The notes beneath the pieces are model-generated. The model had not been told where the DNA came from and did no database searches. It worked only from the letters and a program-made list of their open reading frames with translations. DNA of 33,066 nt from positions 1 to 33,066 of the forward strand of contig CAZZPX010000002.1 in the NCBI GenBank assembly GCA_964655955.1, in the 5' to 3' direction. A program made the translations under genes and the position numbers. Below are positions 4,338-30,146 of this stretch, piece after piece (within the stretch, counting starts at the first letter, position 1; each line of letters starts with the position of its first letter). This DNA is from an uncultured Phycisphaerales bacterium. Its GTDB lineage: Bacteria; Planctomycetota; Phycisphaerae; Phycisphaerales; JAGLTS01.

Positions 4338-5057
4338 ATGCCAATGACAGAAGAGGTTCGGCGTCAGCTTTCTGGCGAGGACAAGACTGGTCCTGGTGAG
4401 TTTCGGTCCCCTGGTGCCAGGACTCGGCGTGACGAGATCATGCCGAAGGCGGGCAGACATGTCTATCATGCCGCCGATGGAGGGTTTGGGGTTCGGCCGA
4501 AGATGGGCGTCTCGGTCCATGCGCAGGTTGCCAACCTGAGGCGCGGCCTTGCCGACGTTCTTGGCGTCGCGGAAGGCTTGATCAGCAAGAGGTTCCTGAC
4601 TCGCGCGCTGGCGCTTCTCGCTGAGGGCAGGCTGAACCTGAAGCCTTCTGCGGCTGAAAAGCTGATGGGCGGGCATGAGAGGCTGTGTCCGGCCATTATG
4701 GGCAAGGTCCCGGTGTCGTCAGTAGCGCGGAATCGTCGCATGATGGAGGCCTTGGCCTTCATGGAGGCGATTGTGCGCTGGGAGGACAACGCGATTCGGA
4801 TATCGAAGATGAATCGGCTGTCTGGCAAGCCGGTTGATGAAGCCGCGATTCGTGATGATACGCCGGTTGAAGAGCCTGTGGTGCAGCAGGCGGACGCCGA
4901 GCCGGCAATTGATCAGAAACTTGCCGCGGTTGACGCTCTGGGCCGTCCGATGTGCCCGATTCACCACGTTCGAGTCAGGAAGAAAGACCTGTCTTGCAGC
5001 CGGTGCCGGTTCGAGCAGGCGCGAAGGGAAACGCTTGAAGAAGCCGGAGACGAATAG
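4338..5057 (+). CDS. Putative small terminase / DNA-recognition subunit, assigned by position only, with a C-terminal CxxH..CxxC zinc-ribbon-like motif (239 aa)
   Basis: Lies immediately upstream of the large terminase. The C-terminus reads CPIHHVRVRKKDLSCSRC. I recognise no family motif. Confidence 0.45.
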   Translation: MPMTEEVRRQLSGEDKTGPGEFRSPGARTRRDEIMPKAGRHVYHAADGGFGVRPKMGVSVHAQVANLRRGLADVLGVAEGLISKRFLTRALALLAEGRLNLKPSAAEKLMGGHERLCPAIMGKVPVSSVARNRRMMEALAFMEAIVRWEDNAIRISKMNRLSGKPVDEAAIRDDTPVEEPVVQQADAEPAIDQKLAAVDALGRPMCPIHHVRVRKKDLSCSRCRFEQARRETLEEAGDE

Positions 5058-5130
5058 TTACGACCCTGTAGAATTGGGCCTGCCCTATCGCTACTGGGAT
5101 TTGCGTGAGCATCAGCGGCGAGAGTGTCGC

Positions 5131-7017
5131 ATGGAGGTGCTTCGCAGTTGGTTCGATCCGAACCGGCTCGACGTGTTCTGCACCGACGTTGACAAACTGG
5201 TTCAGGCCGCAAAGCTCTGGCACTTCCACTACATGCGCCCCGCACGGTGCCATCACGGCATCTACACCCGGCCGAATCCTGAGCACAAGTGGACGATCGT
5301 TCGCAACGCATTCCTGCCCCCGATGGAGCCTGGTGTGTGCGGACGGTCGATTACGCATGCGCCGCGCGGTACGGCCAAGTCGGTGACTCTGGTCTTTGAA
5401 CTGCCTCAGATGGTTGCGATTTGCAGGCCGGCGACCGAAGTGGTGATGAGCCAGCGCAACAAGAAGAAAACTTACCAGTGGATGCGCAAGATTCGGGCGT
5501 CGATCCAAAACAATGACCTGATTCATGCCGACTTTGGCGGCAAGGGCAAGCTGTGGAAGGTCCAGGGCCAGCAGCAGAGCTGGAGCACGGAGACGTTGCA
5601 GTTCGGCCATGACCCGCAGTGCCGGATCGTCGGCGTGTCGGCCCTTGCCGCGGTTCGCGGCGAGCATCCGATCTGGGCGATTATTGACGACCCGGAGACC
5701 AAGAAAGACGCCCGCAACCCGGTCTTTGCCGACAACTACTTCGACTGGTTGCTTCACGACTACATTCCGATCGTTCAGCCGGGTGGTTTCTTCACCTGGA
5801 TTACCACGATCAACGATGAGGGCAGTTGTGCCAATGCGGTGATAAATGGCGTTCGGATCGGCAGTGATTCGGAAGAAGATGATGAGGACGGATCGAGCGG
5901 GTTCATGATTGATGAGCGGTTCGCGTCGTTCAGCAAGACGGTGATACCGCTGTACACCCGCGATGAAGAGACGGGCGAGTGGAAGTCCTCATGGGAAGCG
6001 TTGTACCCGGTCGAGGCCATGACTTCGCTGCAGCGCAGCATGGGCTCGGCCTTTGACGCGGAAATGCAGGGTCAGCCCCGGCCTTCTGGCCAGACTATGT
6101 TCATGCGTGACGACTGCGCGCACGGTTGGGCGCGGTGCGTCAATGCGGATGGCGACCACTTCGTCATTGACCTGTATACGGGCGAGTGCTGGACCTGGAC
6201 GGACTTCATGGCCACTTCCGTCGTGGTTGGCGGCCTTGATCTGGCCGATTCTCAGGCCACGCATGCACAGCCCGGCGCGGCGGTGTTTTTCGCCGTGCGC
6301 GGCGGCGTGATTTACATCCTGGACGCCTACATTCGCAAGTTGCAGTGCCTGTACCTGGTCGAACAGACCTTGCTGCTGGGTGTTCAATGGGCCGCGGTGA
6401 TGCTGGCTGTGGACACTACGGCTATGCAGGTCGCGATTTTGCCGGTGTCCAAGTCGATCCGCCAGAAGTTGATGGATGAGGGCAAGGCGTGTCCGCAATT
6501 TGCTCCGGCCAATGCCGCGGGGATGGCGAACAAGGTGGCTCGGATCGAGGCGGCGCTGTCGTCTCGCTTCAGGGATAAGACGATTCGGTTCCCCTGGATG
6601 CACAAGAAGGATCATCCGGCGCTGGAAGTGGCGATGGCCCGGAACAAGCTGGTTGATTTGGCCCCGATGATGCGGCGCGACGATCACTTGGCGCTTCTGG
6701 CCGAAGTGGACCGGATCACGGACAATGCGAAGCCGACCGGATGGAATGGCCTGGATGCCATTGAAATGGCCATTCGCAAGATGGGCGGCGTGTCGGGCAT
6801 TGAGGCTCCGACCAAGGAGCATACGAATCGTCGCACTATTGATCTGGCTCGTTCGCTGGGTTTGAATGTCGAGCCGAGAATACAGCGCGACGGCACGCTG
6901 ACACCGGGGTTCGATAAGGATGATTATGACGTGTTCGGCGGCGAACGCGAATTGATCGATATGGGACGACCGACAGAGGACGTTCCGGACTATTTTGCGA
7001 TGGACCCATATGGTTGA
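5131..7017 (+). CDS. terL: Terminase large subunit (ATPase plus nuclease); the true start may be upstream (TTG at 5074 or 5101)
   Basis: Walker A-like PRGTAKSVT and Walker B-like IWAIIDDPE. The C-terminal half carries acidic nuclease-type motifs (GGLDLADS, AVDT). Size and position before the portal fit. The frame is open from 4834, but that part reads as off-frame Arg-rich sequence. Confidence 0.8.
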   Translation: MEVLRSWFDPNRLDVFCTDVDKLVQAAKLWHFHYMRPARCHHGIYTRPNPEHKWTIVRNAFLPPMEPGVCGRSITHAPRGTAKSVTLVFELPQMVAICRPATEVVMSQRNKKKTYQWMRKIRASIQNNDLIHADFGGKGKLWKVQGQQQSWSTETLQFGHDPQCRIVGVSALAAVRGEHPIWAIIDDPETKKDARNPVFADNYFDWLLHDYIPIVQPGGFFTWITTINDEGSCANAVINGVRIGSDSEEDDEDGSSGFMIDERFASFSKTVIPLYTRDEETGEWKSSWEALYPVEAMTSLQRSMGSAFDAEMQGQPRPSGQTMFMRDDCAHGWARCVNADGDHFVIDLYTGECWTWTDFMATSVVVGGLDLADSQATHAQPGAAVFFAVRGGVIYILDAYIRKLQCLYLVEQTLLLGVQWAAVMLAVDTTAMQVAILPVSKSIRQKLMDEGKACPQFAPANAAGMANKVARIEAALSSRFRDKTIRFPWMHKKDHPALEVAMARNKLVDLAPMMRRDDHLALLAEVDRITDNAKPTGWNGLDAIEMAIRKMGGVSGIEAPTKEHTNRRTIDLARSLGLNVEPRIQRDGTLTPGFDKDDYDVFGGERELIDMGRPTEDVPDYFAMDPYG

Positions 7018-13334: not shown

Positions 13335-14396
13335 ATGAGTACAACGATTCGAGGCGTCGGTACCGCACAGAAGTACCACGACGTTCTTGACGTGATCAAC
13401 GTCGGCAAGCTGGCTGGAGCAGGCATGCTTGGCGTCGGGGATATCCACCTGGTCCACGACGGATCGGACGTTCCCGTCAAGAGCATTCGGCGACTGTTTC
13501 CCAAGACGAACCGCTGGACCACGATTCAGTCCGCATTGGACGCTTGCCGCGCCGGCGCGAACGACTATGTGTTCCTGCATCCGAAGGATGACGGGTACGG
13601 AACTTCCGCTGCGCGGTCCAGTTGGGCGTCATGGGCGCAATCGGCCAATTTGGATATTGACAAGTCCACGACGCACTTGGTTGGCCTTTCTTCTGGAACC
13701 TATCGACCCCTCATAACGTTTACTGGGGCGCACAGCCTTCGCGTCGGCCCGGACAACACGAGCGATTCCAGGCTGTATGGAGTCGAATTGTCTAATCTGT
13801 TCATTCGTGGGACCGGATCGCTGCATGTGACTTGCGTTACAATAGGCGCATCGGCACTAGGTTTCGTGTTCGATACGCTCATTCGCAACTGCGACATCCA
13901 GAACAACGGAACGTCTGCTGCAACGGCCGAAGTTACGGACTACGGACAGCGAACAATGTTCGTGGAGACCGTATTGGGCGACACAATCACGCATCCGGAC
14001 GACAACTATCTCCAAATCGTTCCTACAGCTCCAGCCAATCAAGCTGGCGGCCGAATCCAAGATGCGACGTTCATTCGCTGTTTTTTCAAGCATCTTGCCG
14101 CTGCGGTTGGCGATCAATTCGCAACCATTGGCGCTGGCGGCAATATGTGCCTGTTCCGCGACTGTACCTTTGTGAACTACAACGTCGGAGTAACTGCGAT
14201 GACAGTTGGAATCGCAGTTGCGTCTGGAGGGTTTGTCGTTGCCCAGAACTGCGGAATGATTGGGGCTACGGCCTTCGGTACGACTGGACTGGTTCTGTGT
14301 GTTCCGGGCGGCATGGGTCTGGCCGTTACATCGGCAGACGTGTTCAATCCGTCGCTTGCGATCGACGGTGCTGAGCCTGTTGCCGCTGATACCTGA
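13335..14396 (+). CDS. Right-handed parallel beta-helix (pectate-lyase-fold) protein (353 aa)
   Basis: N-terminal cap-like IQSALDACRAGANDYVFLHPKDDGY, followed by repeated short beta-rungs (IRNCDIQNNG, FIRCFF, LFRDCTFVNYN, VAQNCGMIG). AGGAG SD. Confidence 0.6.
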   Translation: MSTTIRGVGTAQKYHDVLDVINVGKLAGAGMLGVGDIHLVHDGSDVPVKSIRRLFPKTNRWTTIQSALDACRAGANDYVFLHPKDDGYGTSAARSSWASWAQSANLDIDKSTTHLVGLSSGTYRPLITFTGAHSLRVGPDNTSDSRLYGVELSNLFIRGTGSLHVTCVTIGASALGFVFDTLIRNCDIQNNGTSAATAEVTDYGQRTMFVETVLGDTITHPDDNYLQIVPTAPANQAGGRIQDATFIRCFFKHLAAAVGDQFATIGAGGNMCLFRDCTFVNYNVGVTAMTVGIAVASGGFVVAQNCGMIGATAFGTTGLVLCVPGGMGLAVTSADVFNPSLAIDGAEPVAADT

Positions 14397-14576: not shown

Positions 14577-15109
14577 ACGCGAACCTGTTCAGGCTTCTGT
14601 TCATGCGTCCGCGTCCGGATTGGAACCGACGCGGCCCGAAGCTGCCCGCATGGTGGAGGGCCGGCCTGAAGCGCATCGACCCGCTGCTGGACATGCAGTT
14701 CATGCCGGCGGCGAGTTGGCGTGATCCGGACGGCGTTGACCGCGAGAAGTACCCGCACGGCGTATGGGTCGTTGTGCGTCGTCTCAGGTGGACTCGGCTG
14801 CTTCACAAGCGCTGGGTCTGGTGCCTGACCGATGAGCACGGCAACTATCGCGCGCCGGGAAAGGACAGCCTGCGGTTGCTCCTGTACGCATTCAGGGCGC
14901 ATCGCACCGGCGATTCTTTGAAGATAGAGCGGGCATTTGACAGGTCGCTGTCTCAACTGAAGGCGGCGAAGAGCGAGGAAAGCAAGGCAAGGCTATCGGA
15001 GCGAGTTGCCAGTGCGATGAGGCGCATGGGCATGCCCAACACCGCTGGCGGGCGAATCTTCAATCCGTGGGGCGGAAATGGGTCAAGCGTTTCTGGACAG
15101 GCTATATGA
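14573..15109 (+). CDS. Hypothetical Arg/Trp-rich protein (178 aa)
   Basis: In-operon ORF with coupled start. No recognisable motif. Confidence 0.55.
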   Translation: MNANLFRLLFMRPRPDWNRRGPKLPAWWRAGLKRIDPLLDMQFMPAASWRDPDGVDREKYPHGVWVVVRRLRWTRLLHKRWVWCLTDEHGNYRAPGKDSLRLLLYAFRAHRTGDSLKIERAFDRSLSQLKAAKSEESKARLSERVASAMRRMGMPNTAGGRIFNPWGGNGSSVSGQAI

Positions 15110-15986
15110 GTCGGTTTACGACTACATCGGCGATCCGAACACCACGCGCCGGCTTCCCAAGTCGAAAATACTCTCCGACTTCAACACGGTCGAGCGCGAG
15201 CTGACCGAGTATCTCCTGCGCCTTAGCGGCCAGGAGTCCACCATCAATCGGGCCGAAGCCGACATTACGATTCAAAGCGGGGTAGCCTTCTATCAGTTCC
15301 CGGTCGGGTTCCGAAACTTCATCCGGCTCGAAAAACGCACGGATGGGGACCGGAACCAGGTCGAAGGAATCCTTCAATCCATTCCGGAGCACTACCGCGC
15401 CCAAGTTGGCGTTGTCGTTCTTTCCGCTGACCGCGGCTTCGAGATTCGGCCCATGCCTCGATTGGACGCCGATGAGACCTGGACCCTGGTATACCAGAGG
15501 GGTCCGATCCTGATTCATCACGGAACGGCCCAGGCCGTTACGGACAACACGCTGACGCTGGCCACTTCGCCGGACGCCGATGGTGGGGAGATTGTCGGCC
15601 TGGACGATTACTACAACGGCTCGATGGTCCACGTTTACAGCGCCACGGCGGGTTCATATCAGACCGCAGAAATCACGGATCACGTCGCATCGACCAAGGT
15701 TCTGACGCTGCGGCACGACTGGGCGACGAATCCGACAGGAACGATCAAGTACGAGATTCGGCCAGTGATTCCGACCGAGTATGACGACGTGTACGCACTG
15801 CGCGTCGCGATGAGAAATTGCAGCCGAAGGGAGCAGGCCCGACGCTGGAACCACCTTCGAGCCGAATTTGAGTCTCTGATGGAAGGCGTTCGTTCATGGG
15901 TGCTTCAGAACGTGAGTGACCGACCGAACGAACGCGTTGTGCATGACCTGACCCTTGGCGTGGACCCATACGATGGCGTCTGTTGA
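15078..15986 (+). CDS. Virion structural protein, possibly a head-tail adaptor (302 aa)
   Basis: Position between the head genes and the large tail protein. The function is a positional guess. Confidence 0.55.
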   Translation: MGQAFLDRLYESVYDYIGDPNTTRRLPKSKILSDFNTVERELTEYLLRLSGQESTINRAEADITIQSGVAFYQFPVGFRNFIRLEKRTDGDRNQVEGILQSIPEHYRAQVGVVVLSADRGFEIRPMPRLDADETWTLVYQRGPILIHHGTAQAVTDNTLTLATSPDADGGEIVGLDDYYNGSMVHVYSATAGSYQTAEITDHVASTKVLTLRHDWATNPTGTIKYEIRPVIPTEYDDVYALRVAMRNCSRREQARRWNHLRAEFESLMEGVRSWVLQNVSDRPNERVVHDLTLGVDPYDGVC

Positions 15987-24144: not shown

Positions 24145-27099
24145 GTGGCTCTGTCGTTTCAAGACCAGCTCAACGTCGGCATCGCCAGCATAACGAGCGG
24201 CGACATGGACCTATTGTCCACGATGCTGCTTGAACCGAACAGCGTCACGCTGGACGAAATGCGGACCACTTCCGACAAGCTTGGTGTGACGGGATCGTTC
24301 CAGCGATGGTTCGTTGACACCGTGACTGATCCGACCGTGCTCGTGGCGTGGCTGCTCTCCCGGCGCTACCCAACGTCGAGCTGGTTGACCGGGCGCGTGG
24401 CCGACCGGCATATCGGGTCAGCGAATGATTTCACCGGCGTCAGCATGTTCACCCGCCCGGTCGAGAACTACTTCCGTGGCACGAACATCCCCAAGCTTGT
24501 CGGCCTGTCCATGCGCCGGCACGCCGAAGTGATGAAGGTCGGCAAGACAATGTTCGACCGATTCATGAATCGGCCCAACTGGCGAAACGAGAAGCCTATC
24601 GTCAGCCTGCTCATGGAGGGCCAGAATCCGTCCGGCGCAACCCCAGAGCTTCGCACACTGGCCACTACGCTGCGGCAGGACATGGATGAACTGTGGGGCT
24701 TTCTACGGCACGCCAAGGACATTGACGTTGGCCTGTACAACGAAACGGTGAGCAAGGCGCGCTGGCGGGAACGATCGCACACAGGGGCTGCGCAATACCT
24801 GAGAGACTATCTTCCCCACCTTCCGGCGACCTATTCAAACGAATCGGTAGTCGCCTTGGGCGGACAGGAGGCTCTTCGCCAACTCGGCAAGAACCAGGTA
24901 TGGGGTATGCTCAAAGCGTCCGGACTTACGCCGGAAACCGTCTGGAGCGTGGACAAAGCTGGCCGGCTGTCGTCGAACTTTGCCAAGGTGCAGGAGTTCA
25001 TGAACAACGGCGGCGACAAGATCATCAATCCGCGTCTGTACCAGAGGACCAGGCATAACTTGCCGATCCAGAGCGCCATGGGCCAGGAACTGTTCGTGGC
25101 CGACCTGGACGTTGTGTTGCAGCATTATGTCAACAGCGTGGCGCGGTCCTACGCCAATTACGCACCGCTGTCCAAGACTGAGCGGGCCATTTCCAGTTCC
25201 ATCATCGAGCATCGGGACGGAAGTGTTGGGCGAATCTACCCCAGCGAGGACCCGATACTGGTTCAGGTCATTAACGAGGGTATCGACAGCCTTGGCGGCA
25301 ACATCGTTCAAAGGCAGGTCCCTGGAACGCCTCACGTCCGAAGCGAATTGACTGCCGGCACCGGCAACTATCACATGCTGAGCGGACTCAAGACCCTGGT
25401 CCGGGCCATGCGCGGCGACCTGTCGGACGATGAGATTTTGTGGGGCAACCTGTATTCGTCGGCTCGCGCATCGTTTGATCGGGCCGCTGGCCGGGTTCTG
25501 GGCCGAAAGCAGGAGGCCACACTCGACGCTACGCTCAATTCGATCCAGCGAAGCCGCGACTACCGACGCCACATGAACGGGATTGCTGGCTATTTCTATG
25601 CCACCACGCTTGGCCTGAACCCCTGGACGGCCATGCAGAACATCTTGCAGCCGGCTATCACGACAGCACCCAGCATCGGCATTGGCCCGACGCTGGCCGG
25701 ATATCGCACGCTGGGCAAGAAAGTTGGCGACTACATGAACGCCATCGCCCGCCGGCATCGAATGATGCGCGGCAATCAGAGCGTAGGAGCTACCGGGCGG
25801 CTCATGTCGTCGGTCGAGTCGGCGTTCGAGGACACATTCCCGGAGCTGGCCCAGGCCGGCATGCGGATCGATCCGCGGCTGTTCGAGGGGACTGGGGAAT
25901 TCCTGGTTAATGAGGGCGGTCGCCGCGTGTTCCGCAACGTGGACGACTACTTGCGGGCGACGATGCTTCCGTTTACGCAGACCGAAGCGGCCAACCAAAT
26001 CGTCAGCTTCTACGGCTCAAAGGAAGCGCTGCGGCGTGCCATGCGAGCCGGCGAATGGACTCCGCCAACATCACTGACAACAGGCAAGCCTGTCGTTGGG
26101 TTCGAGCTTGAAGAGGCACTGAACTTCGAGGCGTCGATGAATGTCAACGCCACACAATTCAGGCCCGGACCTGGAAGCCGCACAAAGTTTCAGTCGCTTC
26201 TACCGGCTCCGTTCCGGCAAATGACGACGTTCGCGACCAGGCTGTTCAACTACTTTACGGAATCTACCGTTCGCGGAGCCATGACCAGGGCCGAGCTTGG
26301 GCAGTCCGGCCTGTGGGCACAGGTGACGGGCGGCCGGAACCTGGGCCCGCTGTCCAGAACCTACCTGTACGGGAAGATCGCAGCTAACGGCGCTCGGGAA
26401 GTGCTGGGCATTGATCTGACCGGAGCGCTGGGCGTTACGGCCCCGTTCGCGAACACTTCGCCCGGACTTGGCGTTGTGCCGCTTCCGATACCGCCGCTTC
26501 CGACGACCATTGGCGGAATCGTCAGCTTTACGGCGACCAGGGACGTGAAGGACTTGCAGCCGCTGGAACTCCCGGGCGGTTATCAGGTTCCCATACCCAA
26601 GACATTGTTCCCGGCCGGCGTGTCTGCGAATCGACTCTTCCGCGCCATGAACCAATGGAGGCCGGACGTTGGCGGGTTTGTCGATGAAAATGAACGGCTG
26701 ATGTGGCGCGGCACTAGCACAGATTTGATCATGTCGATGCTAGGTATTCCGCTGGAAAAGCAGCGCAGGGCAAGGCATGATATGGAGCGTTTGCACGCCA
26801 ATCGGACCGCGATTCGAGACTTTCGTCGCCGATTCGCAGTGGCTCGATTGAATGGCGATTACGCCGAAATGGACGTGCTGCAACAGAACTACCAGAAGGC
26901 GTTCCCGGATATGGCCCCGCTGTCTGTCTCTGACGCAGACCTTCGCAGGTATCGCGAACAGTCCCGAATAACGCGGGTCGAGCGAATGCTGCAATCGATG
27001 GGGTCCAGGTCGAGGTACCTTCAGGATCACATATACGATCATGATCCCGATTTAATTGCGGAACCGAGTCCGCTGTCTGTACTGGTGAATTCGCTATGA
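24145..27099 (+). CDS. Large internal virion / ejection-type protein (984 aa, GTG start)
   Basis: AGGAG SD. Size and position resemble podovirus core proteins. I could not see a transglycosylase or peptidase motif. Confidence 0.65.
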   Translation: MALSFQDQLNVGIASITSGDMDLLSTMLLEPNSVTLDEMRTTSDKLGVTGSFQRWFVDTVTDPTVLVAWLLSRRYPTSSWLTGRVADRHIGSANDFTGVSMFTRPVENYFRGTNIPKLVGLSMRRHAEVMKVGKTMFDRFMNRPNWRNEKPIVSLLMEGQNPSGATPELRTLATTLRQDMDELWGFLRHAKDIDVGLYNETVSKARWRERSHTGAAQYLRDYLPHLPATYSNESVVALGGQEALRQLGKNQVWGMLKASGLTPETVWSVDKAGRLSSNFAKVQEFMNNGGDKIINPRLYQRTRHNLPIQSAMGQELFVADLDVVLQHYVNSVARSYANYAPLSKTERAISSSIIEHRDGSVGRIYPSEDPILVQVINEGIDSLGGNIVQRQVPGTPHVRSELTAGTGNYHMLSGLKTLVRAMRGDLSDDEILWGNLYSSARASFDRAAGRVLGRKQEATLDATLNSIQRSRDYRRHMNGIAGYFYATTLGLNPWTAMQNILQPAITTAPSIGIGPTLAGYRTLGKKVGDYMNAIARRHRMMRGNQSVGATGRLMSSVESAFEDTFPELAQAGMRIDPRLFEGTGEFLVNEGGRRVFRNVDDYLRATMLPFTQTEAANQIVSFYGSKEALRRAMRAGEWTPPTSLTTGKPVVGFELEEALNFEASMNVNATQFRPGPGSRTKFQSLLPAPFRQMTTFATRLFNYFTESTVRGAMTRAELGQSGLWAQVTGGRNLGPLSRTYLYGKIAANGAREVLGIDLTGALGVTAPFANTSPGLGVVPLPIPPLPTTIGGIVSFTATRDVKDLQPLELPGGYQVPIPKTLFPAGVSANRLFRAMNQWRPDVGGFVDENERLMWRGTSTDLIMSMLGIPLEKQRRARHDMERLHANRTAIRDFRRRFAVARLNGDYAEMDVLQQNYQKAFPDMAPLSVSDADLRRYREQSRITRVERMLQSMGSRSRYLQDHIYDHDPDLIAEPSPLSVLVNSL

Positions 27100-27422
27100 A
27101 GATGAGGACGCAACAATTCGGCCTTTGCAAGAAGCCGAGTCAACTGGTGACAATCGAAACTCCGGTGGGGTTTATCTCGATCTCCGGAAAGAACATCGAG
27201 GTCGAAATACCGGCGTGCCTTCGCGCCCACAAGGGCAGAGAGCGCGCCATAGAGCACGCCCGCTGGCTGAGTGTAGACGGCGAGATCGTAAGTCCGAAGT
27301 ATTCGATCCTCTCTCCGGTGACGGACTCGGAAGGATCGATCATCGGACTGGAATCACCGAATGAGTTTTTCGTCGCTTGCGGTGCCGGCGACATGGAGGA
27401 CGAACGCGATGAACAGGAGTGA
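27096..27422 (+). CDS. Hypothetical protein (108 aa) with an acidic tail
   Basis: ATGA overlap with the previous gene. Confidence 0.55.
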   Translation: MKMRTQQFGLCKKPSQLVTIETPVGFISISGKNIEVEIPACLRAHKGRERAIEHARWLSVDGEIVSPKYSILSPVTDSEGSIIGLESPNEFFVACGAGDMEDERDEQE

Positions 27423-27423
27423 T

Positions 27424-27930
27424 ATGGTCCACGCATGGCGTCTCTGGCGTCAGTGGGTCGGCGGCGCGGCAGAGGACACGATTGGTTCATACGGCCCGGA
27501 CGACAAACCAACTACCGGACTGATCGGCGTTGGCGGATGTCGGGCCATTGCGCTGCGCATCTTCGGAAAAGATGCGGATAACGAGACCGGGACGATAACC
27601 ATCATCGGGTGGAACAACAACGGCCCTGGTCAGGTGCTATGGCAGGGGCAGGTCATTCTTGGGGCTACGGTGTTTGACGAAAAGGTCATACCCGGAACAG
27701 TCGTCGCGGCCGGAAACTGGTTTGAGGTGGATACTTACGATTCAAGCGGCGGAAGCAATGCGTGCGGCGCACAGGTGTTCGACGGCGGGGCACAAGCGTT
27801 GTTGATGGTCCCGACGCTCGGATACACCGACCTGGACATTCGGGCCACGGACAAGGATGGATCAACAGGGTCCGAAGCGGCTACGCTTTGTGCGATCTAC
27901 CGGACCCACGACGCGATGCTGGTGGTTTGA
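27424..27930 (+). CDS. Hypothetical beta-rich protein (168 aa from the ATG at 27424)
   Basis: AGGAG 5 nt upstream of the ATG at 27424. The track start at 27361 overlaps the upstream gene. Confidence 0.55.
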   Translation: MVHAWRLWRQWVGGAAEDTIGSYGPDDKPTTGLIGVGGCRAIALRIFGKDADNETGTITIIGWNNNGPGQVLWQGQVILGATVFDEKVIPGTVVAAGNWFEVDTYDSSGGSNACGAQVFDGGAQALLMVPTLGYTDLDIRATDKDGSTGSEAATLCAIYRTHDAMLVV

Positions 27931-27933
27931 TTC

Positions 27934-29382
27934 ATGGCGCACGAGTTCTGTCAACCATTCGCGTACCCGATACGATCGGACCCGGCCGCGGCCACGATAG
28001 GCATCATGCGCACGGCCGAGGCCGACGGGGACGTTCTGTTCAAGGTCAAGTACTGGCTGGCCAGTGCGGGAGAGGGAGAGGCCGTAACAACCGATCCGGT
28101 CCAGTCGAACGTACTCTCCGTGCCGGAGCGGATGATTGCGACTCTGCCCGACTTGGTTCCGAACGCCAAGTACGAATTCAAGATCATTCACAACCTGAAC
28201 GATGCGGGCGATGTTGAACTTGAGCGGGTTGGCACATTCTGGGGTCCAACCGATTCAGTGGACGCCGAAGTGTGCGGGGCTTTAATCGGAGACATTCACA
28301 ACGGCAATGACGCCGTGGCCGACAAGTCTGCTCAGCAGCTTCAGGACGTGGACAGCGTTGCTGATGTAATGGTTGCGCGTGGCTGCCAGATAGCCATATT
28401 TGGCGGCGACGATGTACACAATGTTCAGAAAACATACCTAACCGGAGAGAATGATTCAGAGAAGGTTGCCGCCGTTCACACCGCCTACAAGAACTTTTGC
28501 GAAGTTTGGGAGCGCCCAATGTCGCTGGCGGCATGCTATTGGATACATGGGAACCATGAGGGAACCGGCGCTGAGTGGTACGGGGATGAAGCGCTTACCG
28601 AAAGCCTTGTCGCAGGAATGTGGCAGCAATGGCACACGGCTGCACATAAGCAGTTCTTCGGCAATCCGGCAACGGATATTGGAGAAGATGATTCGGAGTG
28701 GGCAGACCCGGACGACATAACAAACACAGAGGCTTGGGTTGCAGCACCTAATCAGCCTCCTTTTGAGTCTAGCTTCGCGATTCGCCACGGTCCGGTGCTG
28801 ATCGTTGGCGTCGATACGGAGCGATTCGGAGCCCCAGGAGAGTCAGCATTGGCCGGCATAGCAACACTTGGAGAGTCTCAACTTAACTGGGCTGTGTCTG
28901 CCGCCCAGTCATCTGACGCGATCTGGAAGATTCTGATTCTGCACAGGCCATCGGGCGGATATCGCAGGGGCGACGCAACGTTAACTTCGTACCGCAGAGG
29001 GAACCCGGCAGTTGTCGCCGGCCAAAAGCAGTATGCCTGGGGCCGATCCGAATTTGAACGACTGGTGGTTGGGGGCGGGTTTCATGCAGTCATGAGCTAT
29101 CACGACCACATAAATACGATGCAGCGATACGTGAAGCGCTCGGGCATCCCCTGCTTCCAGGGTGGCTCCCCGACAGTTCCATTCTCGTGGACCACCCACT
29201 TTCGAGGACTGCCCAGCGCGCGGCAGCACGTTTATAACAACTTCAGGTCGATCTGGGTCTATAACGCGACCAGGGATGTGTGCGTGCTTCGGTGCATACG
29301 AACCGTCAATGGGGACAGGGATGGTACGCTAAATGAGGTTGTGTTTGAGCACCGACTGAAGAGATCAGTCCACTTCGGATAG
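27934..29382 (+). CDS. Calcineurin-like metallophosphoesterase with an N-terminal FN3/beta-sandwich domain, resembling purple acid phosphatases (482 aa, no signal peptide)
   Basis: All five MPE motifs occur in order: GDIHNG, GGDDVHN, GNHEG, ILILHRP, YHDH. The N-terminal LPDLVPNAKYEFKI resembles the PAP N-domain strand. Confidence 0.8.
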   Translation: MAHEFCQPFAYPIRSDPAAATIGIMRTAEADGDVLFKVKYWLASAGEGEAVTTDPVQSNVLSVPERMIATLPDLVPNAKYEFKIIHNLNDAGDVELERVGTFWGPTDSVDAEVCGALIGDIHNGNDAVADKSAQQLQDVDSVADVMVARGCQIAIFGGDDVHNVQKTYLTGENDSEKVAAVHTAYKNFCEVWERPMSLAACYWIHGNHEGTGAEWYGDEALTESLVAGMWQQWHTAAHKQFFGNPATDIGEDDSEWADPDDITNTEAWVAAPNQPPFESSFAIRHGPVLIVGVDTERFGAPGESALAGIATLGESQLNWAVSAAQSSDAIWKILILHRPSGGYRRGDATLTSYRRGNPAVVAGQKQYAWGRSEFERLVVGGGFHAVMSYHDHINTMQRYVKRSGIPCFQGGSPTVPFSWTTHFRGLPSARQHVYNNFRSIWVYNATRDVCVLRCIRTVNGDRDGTLNEVVFEHRLKRSVHFG

Positions 29383-29392
29383 GGAGAGCGGC

Positions 29393-29806
29393 ATGCGACG
29401 GATCGCAATACTTGTCATCCTTCTGGCGGGCTGTGTGTCTCGGCCCAATTCGTCAGTTGACGTTGGTGGTCCTGTGGATCGAATCGATTCGGACGCCTGG
29501 TCCGGGGCGATAGCTGCGAAAGTGGCGGCGGATGTCCGAACCACAATCGACGCCAAGGCCGATCTCGATGCCCGCGTTGACGCGATTGTGGCGTCTACGA
29601 TTCGACTGCAAGCCGATGTTGCGGCGTTTTCGGCCAAGCTGGATCAGCGCGCAGGCAGAGACATTAACAATCCCTGGATTGCGGTCGCCGGGATATTCGC
29701 TGTGCCGATTACCATTGGGCTAACGATCTTAGCCTATGCTACGATGCACCGCTGGAAGTCTCTCAGGAATCTCCTTGACACCCTCAAGGGAAAACCTCAG
29801 GCGTGA
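29393..29806 (+). CDS. Lipoprotein with a C-terminal transmembrane helix; candidate unimolecular spanin (137 aa)
   Basis: Signal plus lipobox MRRIAILVILLAGC, a helical Ala/Asp-rich middle, a C-terminal TM segment WIAVAGIFAVPITIGLTILAYATM, and GGGAGAG SD. Confidence 0.55.
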   Translation: MRRIAILVILLAGCVSRPNSSVDVGGPVDRIDSDAWSGAIAAKVAADVRTTIDAKADLDARVDAIVASTIRLQADVAAFSAKLDQRAGRDINNPWIAVAGIFAVPITIGLTILAYATMHRWKSLRNLLDTLKGKPQA

Positions 29807-29822
29807 ATCAGAAATCATTGAG

Positions 29823-30146
29823 ATGGAGCGGGAAGATATGTCTGAGAAAAACGGCAATTTATTCCGGAATCGCTGGCGGGCACTGGTTGCAACAGCAGTG
29901 GCCGCTGGGGCGCTATGCAGTACGGTTGCCCTGGCTTCTAAGTATTACATTGATGAGGGCGACAAGAAAACGGCAGGCGGCGCTGCCTCTAATTTGTTGG
30001 CCCATATCGAGTCCGGCCATCCAGAAGCATCGAAGCAAAGGATGACACTGATGCGTGAAGTGGCTCGCGTTCAAACGCAAGTCGAGGCGATCGACAAGAG
30101 GCTGAGTCGCATCGAGGACAAGCTGGACGCGATCGCAAGGGACTAG
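29823..30146 (+). CDS. Type II membrane protein with a coiled-coil ectodomain, i-spanin-like or holin-like (107 aa; alternative ATG at 29838)
   Basis: N-terminal TM segment WRALVATAVAAGALCSTVALA, followed by REVARVQTQVEAIDKRLSRIEDKLDAIARD. Confidence 0.5.
   Translation: MEREDMSEKNGNLFRNRWRALVATAVAAGALCSTVALASKYYIDEGDKKTAGGAASNLLAHIESGHPEASKQRMTLMREVARVQTQVEAIDKRLSRIEDKLDAIARD

Follow-up and report, generated by a model that had tools for sequence, protein, structure and literature searches.

Purple acid phosphatases (PAPs) and PhoD are classic phosphate-scavenging enzymes. PAPs are recognised by the ligand set GDxG / GDxxY / GNH(D/E) / VxxH / GHxH, the tyrosine of which forms an Fe(III)-tyrosinate, and PhoD is known for an unusual Fe/Ca site. 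In the two-domain PAPs of plants, such as lupin PPD1, a diphosphonucleotide phosphatase/phosphodiesterase (3zk4), and the sweet potato enzyme (1xzw), an N-terminal beta-sandwich precedes the metallophosphoesterase core, while PhoD of Bacillus subtilis (2yeq; PF09423) is a phosphodiesterase/alkaline phosphatase exported by the twin-arginine translocation (Tat) route. Phages carry phosphoesterases as well. Lactobacillus phage Ld17, for example, has a glycerophosphodiester phosphodiesterase (GDPD) in its baseplate. GDPD phosphodiesterases are also encoded in the tail modules of enterococcal phages (PMC10194240), phosphatase domains figure among the annotated tail-spike parts of the Crassvirales (PMC10136315), and a cyanophage PhoD that adjoins structural genes and is strongly expressed in infection has been read by its authors as serving phosphate acquisition (bioRxiv 10.64898/2026.02.14.705889). 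Here we analyse a gene of an uncultured short-tailed phage at 27934-29382 of a 33,066-base contig from activated sludge (hereafter the window, meaning the whole stretch of DNA under analysis). Judged from its sequence, the gene product is an intact calcineurin-like metallophosphoesterase. We put at about 45% the probability that it is made late in infection and, whether carried on the virion or released by lysis, acts as a phosphoesterase on phosphate-bearing polymers of the envelope or matrix.

The enzyme and its fold

An earlier note, written from the letters of the window, had singled out this open reading frame (ORF) for five intact calcineurin-like motifs, and the present analysis bears this out. 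The five superfamily motifs (DxH, GD, GNH(D/E), H and a GHxH-type motif) stand in order at the positions then given, with all metal ligands present. Pfam Metallophos (PF00149), a check the earlier note had proposed, is matched over residues 117-392 at E 5.9e-6, its 27.3 bits exceeding the cut-off of 21.5, and the same domain scores 23-61 bits in relatives. Across a 17-sequence family alignment (19-49% identity), residues D120, H122, D159, N207, H208, H337, H390 and H392 are invariant, as the same eight are in an alignment of 8 core sequences. Because the metal ligands and the catalytic histidine are invariant across relatives, the motifs are not the product of chance. The claim that the protein has no secretion signal likewise held on inspection of the N-terminus, where neither a hydrophobic segment nor a twin-arginine motif nor a signal peptide was found. 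The G+C content at third codon positions (GC3) of the gene is 0.631, less than one standard deviation from the window mean of 0.671, a value that does not show recent acquisition.

An AlphaFold2 model built on the 8-sequence alignment (mean predicted local distance difference test score, pLDDT, 75.7; predicted template-modelling score, pTM, 0.84) comprises a beta-sandwich over approximately residues 11-103, at a pLDDT of ~90, followed by an alpha/beta phosphoesterase core. Against the PDB, Foldseek matches this model to lupin PPD1 (3zk4; E 3e-17, query-normalised template-modelling score, TMq, 0.60) and to sweet potato PAP (1xzw; E ~5e-16, TMq 0.57), both with a probability of 1.00, as well as to B. 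subtilis PhoD (2yeq_A; E 2.4e-12, TMq 0.62) and several mammalian PAPs (E 8e-11 and weaker, TMq ~0.42). At the sequence level, a search with the family profile recovers PAPs of pig and human (E 3e-4) and, over residues 29-105, an FN3 domain of contactin-5 (E 3e-3); Pfam fn3 alone is weak in the enzyme (E 0.078). No PDB sequence was matched when the enzyme served as a single-sequence query, so that PAPs were reached with the family profile only. Model, Foldseek and family profile together uphold the earlier description of an FN3-like N-terminal domain in a PAP-like architecture, unlike that of Mre11/SbcD.

The protein is nonetheless not a true PAP, since its motif I is DxH and the position of the ligand tyrosine is not conserved. 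H122 aligns to the glycine of the PAP GDxG motif, and the position of the tyrosine ligand (+3 after D159) is a histidine in the enzyme and variable among relatives; HMMER aligns a tyrosine (Y168, present in 7 of the 8 core sequences) only across a 5-residue gap. No "purple" centre is therefore expected, as the Fe(III)-binding tyrosine of GDxxY is not conserved in position. Plant PAPs are only 13-14% identical to the enzyme and differ from it in having GDxG and a signal peptide. The family Pur_ac_phosph_N (PF16656), which the earlier note had named as a second check, is not matched in the window protein and scores 18.7 bits in a relative (P0004) against a cut-off of 30. Assignment to the strict PAPs was accordingly rejected. 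Membership in PhoD fails as well: the overall fold does match, but the window protein has no match to PF09423 (cut-off 27 bits) and no Tat signal. That cut-off is narrowly passed by three relatives (P0007, 31.6 bits; P0025, 27.8; P0017, 27.3), and scores against the NCBIfam PhoD equivalog fall far under its cut-off. PHROGs gave no match to the enzyme or to most of its neighbours, and NCBIfam none to the enzyme.

By analogy with the superfamily, two metal ions would be held by D120/H122/D159/H392 and by D159/N207/H337/H390, a metal-bound hydroxide would attack the phosphorus, and H208 of the GNHE motif would assist the leaving group. The invariant residues K239, R297, Y353 and R355 probably take part in binding an anionic substrate.

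In a library of viral structures, the best match to the model is gp352 of Bacillus phage G (E 4e-15). Searched by tblastn, gp352 itself finds 36 phage records, which include crAss-like phages, IAS virus, the DAC/SJC Bacteroides phages and Lak megaphages. Given the precedents of crAss002 gp19, phage G gp352 and the DAC and Lak proteins, putative PAP-fold enzymes in phage structural regions have thus already been annotated. These gp352-type "phosphatases" resemble the window enzyme in being phage-encoded, in placing a PAP fold after an FN3-like domain, in lying within or near structural genes and in lacking a signal peptide. They differ in that gp352 has GNND, a long N-terminal extension and a giant next gene, whereas the window enzyme has GNHE, a bare two-domain form and no giant partner; gp352 (L019 19583-22183) stands before the gene of the 2055-residue gp353, and in crAss002 the portal and capsid genes come first, with gp19 downstream of them and the 2622-residue gp20 next. 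The enzyme and four of its relatives show no tblastn similarity to the gp352 family, and the profile scores 19.7 bits against gp352; as far as sequence can tell, the window family is separate from the gp352/crAss "phosphatase" family. The case thus shows two entries, at the least, of PAP/PhoD-type enzymes into the late modules of phages, one for each of these families, and one biochemical study would bear on many annotations. In gp352, segments that by eye resemble a tail fibre ("DTEELYIGN") and a lamin tail are joined to the FN3-PAP module.

Relatives and their genomic settings

HMMER, run over all of 1.84 billion cluster representatives, returned only 26 proteins at E <= 1e-3. A word-indexed protein search gave only three close relatives, and pattern-based scans of IMG/VR and JGI metagenomes no further ones. 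The eight closest members form one clade (support 100/100), within which both bare and fused forms occur. P0002 and P0003 (491-499 residues) are ~48% identical to the window enzyme, and P0007 has 497 residues. In P0004 (751 residues), P0005 (777), P0008 (899) and P0006 (1076), the same module follows an N-terminal extension of 250-390 residues. Relatives fused to extra modules, of types usual in extracellular glycan-binding proteins, are 25-36% identical. P0006 has two DNRLRE/CBM96-like domains (NF033679, E 1.7e-26). The DNRLRE family, a kin of the alginate-binding CBM96, is found in S-layer proteins and polysaccharide lyases (PMC9971899). A beta-rich domain of ~250 residues is common to seven proteins, namely the other long forms and the more distant P0017, P0018, P0019 and P0025; it has weak similarity to pentraxins and to sialidase N-terminal (ConA-like lectin) domains, and a LamG-like "W..V..W.G....Y.NG" segment can be made out by eye. 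None of the 12 members in phage contexts has a signal peptide, a twin-arginine motif or a hydrophobic N-terminus. Among more distant, cellular-looking homologues, P0012, P0013 and P0023 have Tat signals, as PhoD does and the window enzyme does not, and P0014 and P0026 have Sec signals.

Two observations concern the C-termini of the relatives. In P0006, P0019 and P0025 (L008 1717-4947, L014 114-3248 and L017 10001-13003), the longest relatives, extra C-terminal beta domains are followed at the very end by a basic repeat (KTKRGATITT...TRGATIINR, KTSRGIKITNN and KTKRGSIIVNK, respectively). P0002 and P0003 (L006 380-1879 and L001 6088-7563) share the ending ...YGANGVH(W/Y)..., and the protein directly upstream of P0002 (L006 3-380) ends in ...LGSNGVHWRG...; such endings may be a C-terminal tag shared by adjacent late proteins.

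All recovered contexts are phage-like. Three of them (L018, L001/L002 and L013) belong to one syntenic, podovirus-like lineage of tightly packed genes, in which TerL is followed by about seven genes, including that of a 420-residue Laminin_G_3-like protein, then by a small gene and the enzyme; after the enzyme come a gene for 133-141 residues, an 811-819-residue phrog_376 "tail protein" and a Peptidase_S74 tail fibre. The enzyme keeps this slot even though identity between the proteins beside it is down to 32-46%, and the slot holds both short and long forms. A 332-residue protein encoded upstream in the L018 lineage is a tentative candidate for an SU10-type adaptor. Apart from these three, lineages do not share the small genes beside the enzyme. 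Placement in a tail module is mixed across the family, with the enzyme between TerL and a tail protein or fibre in this lineage and elsewhere in L009, L015, L008 and L017. In L009-L011, a phage with portal (DUF4055), MuF, tail terminator and tail tube genes, the enzyme gene separates TerL from the portal, and in L015/L016 it comes after RusA-type early genes, four small genes before TerL. In L008 and in L017, the latter a 522-kb contig, it is found among genes for HNH proteins, peptide deformylase, ribonucleotide reductase (RNR), ThyX and dCMP deaminase.

Some details of these contexts stand apart. The 899-residue form of L009 (10001-12700; also in L010 and L011), a siphovirus-like phage, precedes a DUF4055 portal that is itself followed by a 969-residue MuF-domain protein, an unusual location for a surface enzyme. 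The RNR large-subunit gene near P0006 (L008 5872-8607) has an intein, with Intein_splicing matched between two Ribonuc_red_lgC matches.

Site of action and competing explanations

We favour action outside the cell because cellular members of the fold act outside the cytoplasm, while the phage clade is devoid of export signals, and because the family combines fusions to glycan-binding-type and FN3 domains with placement in a late operon and, in one lineage, a conserved slot. Extracellular-type modules without a signal peptide are typical of phage particle proteins, which speaks for exit by way of the virion or the lysate. An enzyme made late would leave with the progeny, either as an accessory on the virion or free in the lysate, and would then hydrolyse phosphoesters in the phosphate-bearing polymers that form the envelope or matrix of a diderm host dwelling in activated-sludge flocs. 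Phosphodiester-linked capsular or O-antigen-type glycans, phosphorylated lipopolysaccharide and extracellular DNA are candidate substrates, whose cleavage would aid adsorption or penetration. The job so proposed is the one proposed for virion GDPD, a particle-borne phosphodiesterase acting on phosphodiester-linked surface polymers (PMC10194240); however, GDPD has an unrelated TIM barrel fold and its phages infect Gram-positive hosts with teichoic acids, whereas the window phage points to a diderm host. Should the enzyme indeed act at the surface, phosphoester cleavage would join the activities of diderm-phage depolymerases, which are so far mainly glycosidases, lyases and esterases, and would provide a handle on phosphate-containing capsules or on the floc matrix of wastewater communities.

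The first of three hypotheses in the earlier note, that of a receptor-destroying enzyme borne by the virion, thus survives in part: extracellular action is favoured, with attachment to the virion as one possible form of it. The remark that this enzyme class is not known among tailspikes is outdated, given the phosphatase domains of crAss-like tail spikes (PMC10136315) and GDPD in tail modules (PMC10194240). The "tailspike position" itself turns out to be an analogy only, since the protein has no anchoring domain, another spike candidate exists at 13335-14396 and the relatives are placed elsewhere; nor was a link to P22 found among the recognisable proteins of the window, and the comparison with the tailspike position of P22-like phages is not supported.

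Several points weigh against action at the surface. The window protein has no recognisable domain for anchoring to tail or capsid, the model consisting of the FN3-like domain and the core only; there is no sign of a trimer, and tail-fibre families are matched in the enzyme neither in PHROGs nor in Pfam. The substrate is wholly inferred. The call of a lectin-like N-terminal domain in the long relatives is statistically weak, and the model of P0004 has a pLDDT <50 over residues 1-260. By tblastn with the window enzyme, P0006, P0007, P0008 and P0025, the family is unmatched in 50,697 phage records, in which the window TerL, used as a control, does recover matches. The position of the gene is inconstant, being portal-adjacent in L009, before TerL in L015 and among RNR, ThyX and dCMP-deaminase genes in L008 and L017. 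Finally, the cyanophage PhoD, even though it adjoins neck-fibre genes, has been interpreted as phosphate-scavenging (bioRxiv 10.64898/2026.02.14.705889).

A more far-reaching proposal is that the family constitutes an unrecognised class of virion-borne depolymerase on phages of diderm bacteria, a binuclear metallo-phosphodiesterase of the PAP/PhoD fold. Such an enzyme, bare or fused to a lectin or carbohydrate-binding module (CBM), would cut phosphodiester-linked polymers of the surface or biofilm matrix in adsorption, and its gene would be a cassette that has passed among podovirus-like, siphovirus-like and very large phages. We regard this proposal as rather unlikely.

The main rival, which we judge unlikely but which deserves to be taken seriously, is that of an auxiliary metabolic enzyme: a cytoplasmic or lysis-released phosphatase or phosphodiesterase that frees phosphate from host nucleotides and nucleic acids, or else from organic phosphoesters or polyphosphate, for the synthesis of phage DNA or for the next hosts. 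PhoD and PAPs classically scavenge phosphate, and three relatives stand narrowly above the PF09423 cut-off. The settings of L008 and L017, where two relatives lie among genes of nucleotide metabolism, would also fit a metabolic gene, and the sample, activated sludge, is a place of intense phosphorus cycling. A precedent is the cyanophage phoD, a highly expressed gene interpreted as a phosphate gene (bioRxiv 10.64898/2026.02.14.705889). On the other hand, by the time a late-operon gene is expressed it could hardly supply replication any more, a cytoplasmic scavenger has little use for fused CBM-like and FN3 domains, the slot within the morphogenesis block is fixed in three members of one lineage, and without a signal peptide the periplasm, which is the usual site of PhoD, is out of reach. 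Phosphate scavenging had been the third hypothesis of the earlier note; it gains from the kinship to PhoD and from the metabolic contexts, and it leaves the late timing and the CBM fusions unexplained. Were it correct, the gene would be a routine auxiliary one.

Improbable, in our estimation, is a part in anti-defence, the second hypothesis of the earlier note, by which a cytoplasmic phosphodiesterase would destroy the cyclic-nucleotide signals of CBASS, Pycsar, Thoeris or type III CRISPR systems. A role of this kind has been proposed for calcineurin-like phosphodiesterases of some phages, those like T5 A1 (PMC7824862). One relative of the window enzyme bears an automatic "CpdA" label, and the lack of a signal peptide would suit a cytoplasmic enzyme. 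However, the protein belongs to the PAP/PhoD fold class and has an FN3 domain instead of the compact form of class III phosphodiesterases; its gene is late, not early; and its relatives include large, multidomain proteins of 750-1076 residues with glycan-binding-type modules. Fold class, late timing and multidomain relatives all disfavour the idea. The signal-degrading enzymes Acb1 and Apyc1, moreover, have other folds.

An accessory role in lysis has a similarly slim chance. A signal-less hydrolase would here pass through the holin lesion and, together with spanin-like proteins, cut phosphodiester links between envelope polymers and the wall. The gene does lie directly upstream of those for a lipoprotein with a transmembrane (TM) helix and for a TM-plus-coiled-coil protein, and the window proteins scanned, a set that covers only part of the small ORFs, include no recognisable endolysin, whose absence is accordingly apparent only. 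The idea rests solely on adjacency in one genome, the genes of relatives never adjoin lysis-like genes, and peptidoglycan itself has no phosphoester bond.

Least probable of all, with a very slight chance, is a non-catalytic, phosphate-recognising binder ("phospho-lectin") serving attachment only: the gp352-like family, which has lost the catalytic histidine (GNND), illustrates that loss of the full chemistry need not entail loss of the fold, but in the window family neither the histidine of GNH(D/E) nor any metal ligand varies in 17 sequences, which argues for catalysis.

Features and neighbours in the window

The window is made up of a single rightward late operon (~4338-30146) with leftward early genes at both ends. 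Its recognisable proteins are only TerL (phrog_38), Cpn10, an SU10-type adaptor (15078-15986), a weak match to a podovirus capsid and an ArdC-like protein. TerL (4834-7017) matches phrog_38 at E 9e-35, and its best tblastn matches in the 50,697 phage genomes, to Mu-like phages, are 20-25% identical at E >= 1e-3; with a TerL so far from those of cultured phages, the contig stands for an uncultured lineage that branches very deeply. The coordinates of the enzyme and of its immediate neighbours are collected in Table 1.

Table 1. Coordinates of the enzyme gene, its domains and motifs, and the adjoining genes in the window.
Feature	Coordinates	Strand	Basis or remark
PAP/PhoD-fold metallophosphoesterase gene (P0001)	27934..29382	+	ATG 27934, TAG 29382, 482 aa
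FN3-like beta-sandwich, N-terminal, ~residues 1-110	27934..28263	+	strands at pLDDT ~90, profile match
Binuclear metallophosphoesterase catalytic domain, ~residues 111-482	28264..29382	+	PF00149, mammalian PAP alignment
Motif I GDIHNG (D120, H122), residues 119-124	28288..28305	+	D120, H122 invariant
Motif II GGDDVHN (bridging D159), residues 157-163	28402..28422	+	alignments
Motif III GNHEG (N207 ligand, H208 catalytic His), residues 206-210	28549..28563	+	alignments
Motif IV ILILHRP (H337), residues 333-339	28930..28950	+	alignments
Motif V YHDH (H390, H392), residues 389-392	29098..29109	+	alignments
Upstream beta-rich gene, 189 aa as listed	27361..27930	+	stops 3 nt before enzyme ATG
Lipobox (LLAGC) and C-terminal TM helix, unimolecular-spanin-like topology	29393..29806	+	sequence inspection; begins 10 nt past enzyme stop
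N-terminal TM segment and coiled coil, resembling an i-spanin or a holin	~29839..30146	+	closes the rightward operon; weak coiled-coil Pfam only

The enzyme gene follows the presumed block of ejection proteins and precedes the membrane-protein genes, with gaps of 3 nucleotides upstream and 10 downstream, and prediction of promoters and terminators found none near it. The earlier note was right to place it in the structural, or late, operon and not strictly right to have it close that operon: because two co-oriented membrane-protein genes (29393-29806 and ~29839-30146) come after it, it is the last large gene and not the last gene. The first of the two encodes a protein with no family match. 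The lipoprotein and spanin-like genes downstream point to a diderm host.

The beta-rich protein directly upstream (27361-27930) has no family match and no similarity to the neighbours of relatives, and the notion that it is the lectin-like N-terminal domain, split off into a gene of its own, found no support (hhalign E 0.68). As listed, its ORF overlaps the preceding one (27096-27422) by 62 nucleotides; its true start is possibly the ATG at 27424, right after the preceding stop.

Farther upstream, between the capsid and adaptor genes, a 353-residue protein is encoded at 13335-14396. It has repeated N/R-C-x-F/I motifs, a "TIQSALDA...GDYVFL" start and, by eye, the look of a parallel beta-helix, a nature left unconfirmed by Pfam, NCBIfam and PDB sequence searches, which gave nothing. 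The protein is a possible alternative candidate for a spike or head fibre. At 0.610, the GC3 of its gene ranks near the bottom of the late operon, where no other large gene has a lower value.

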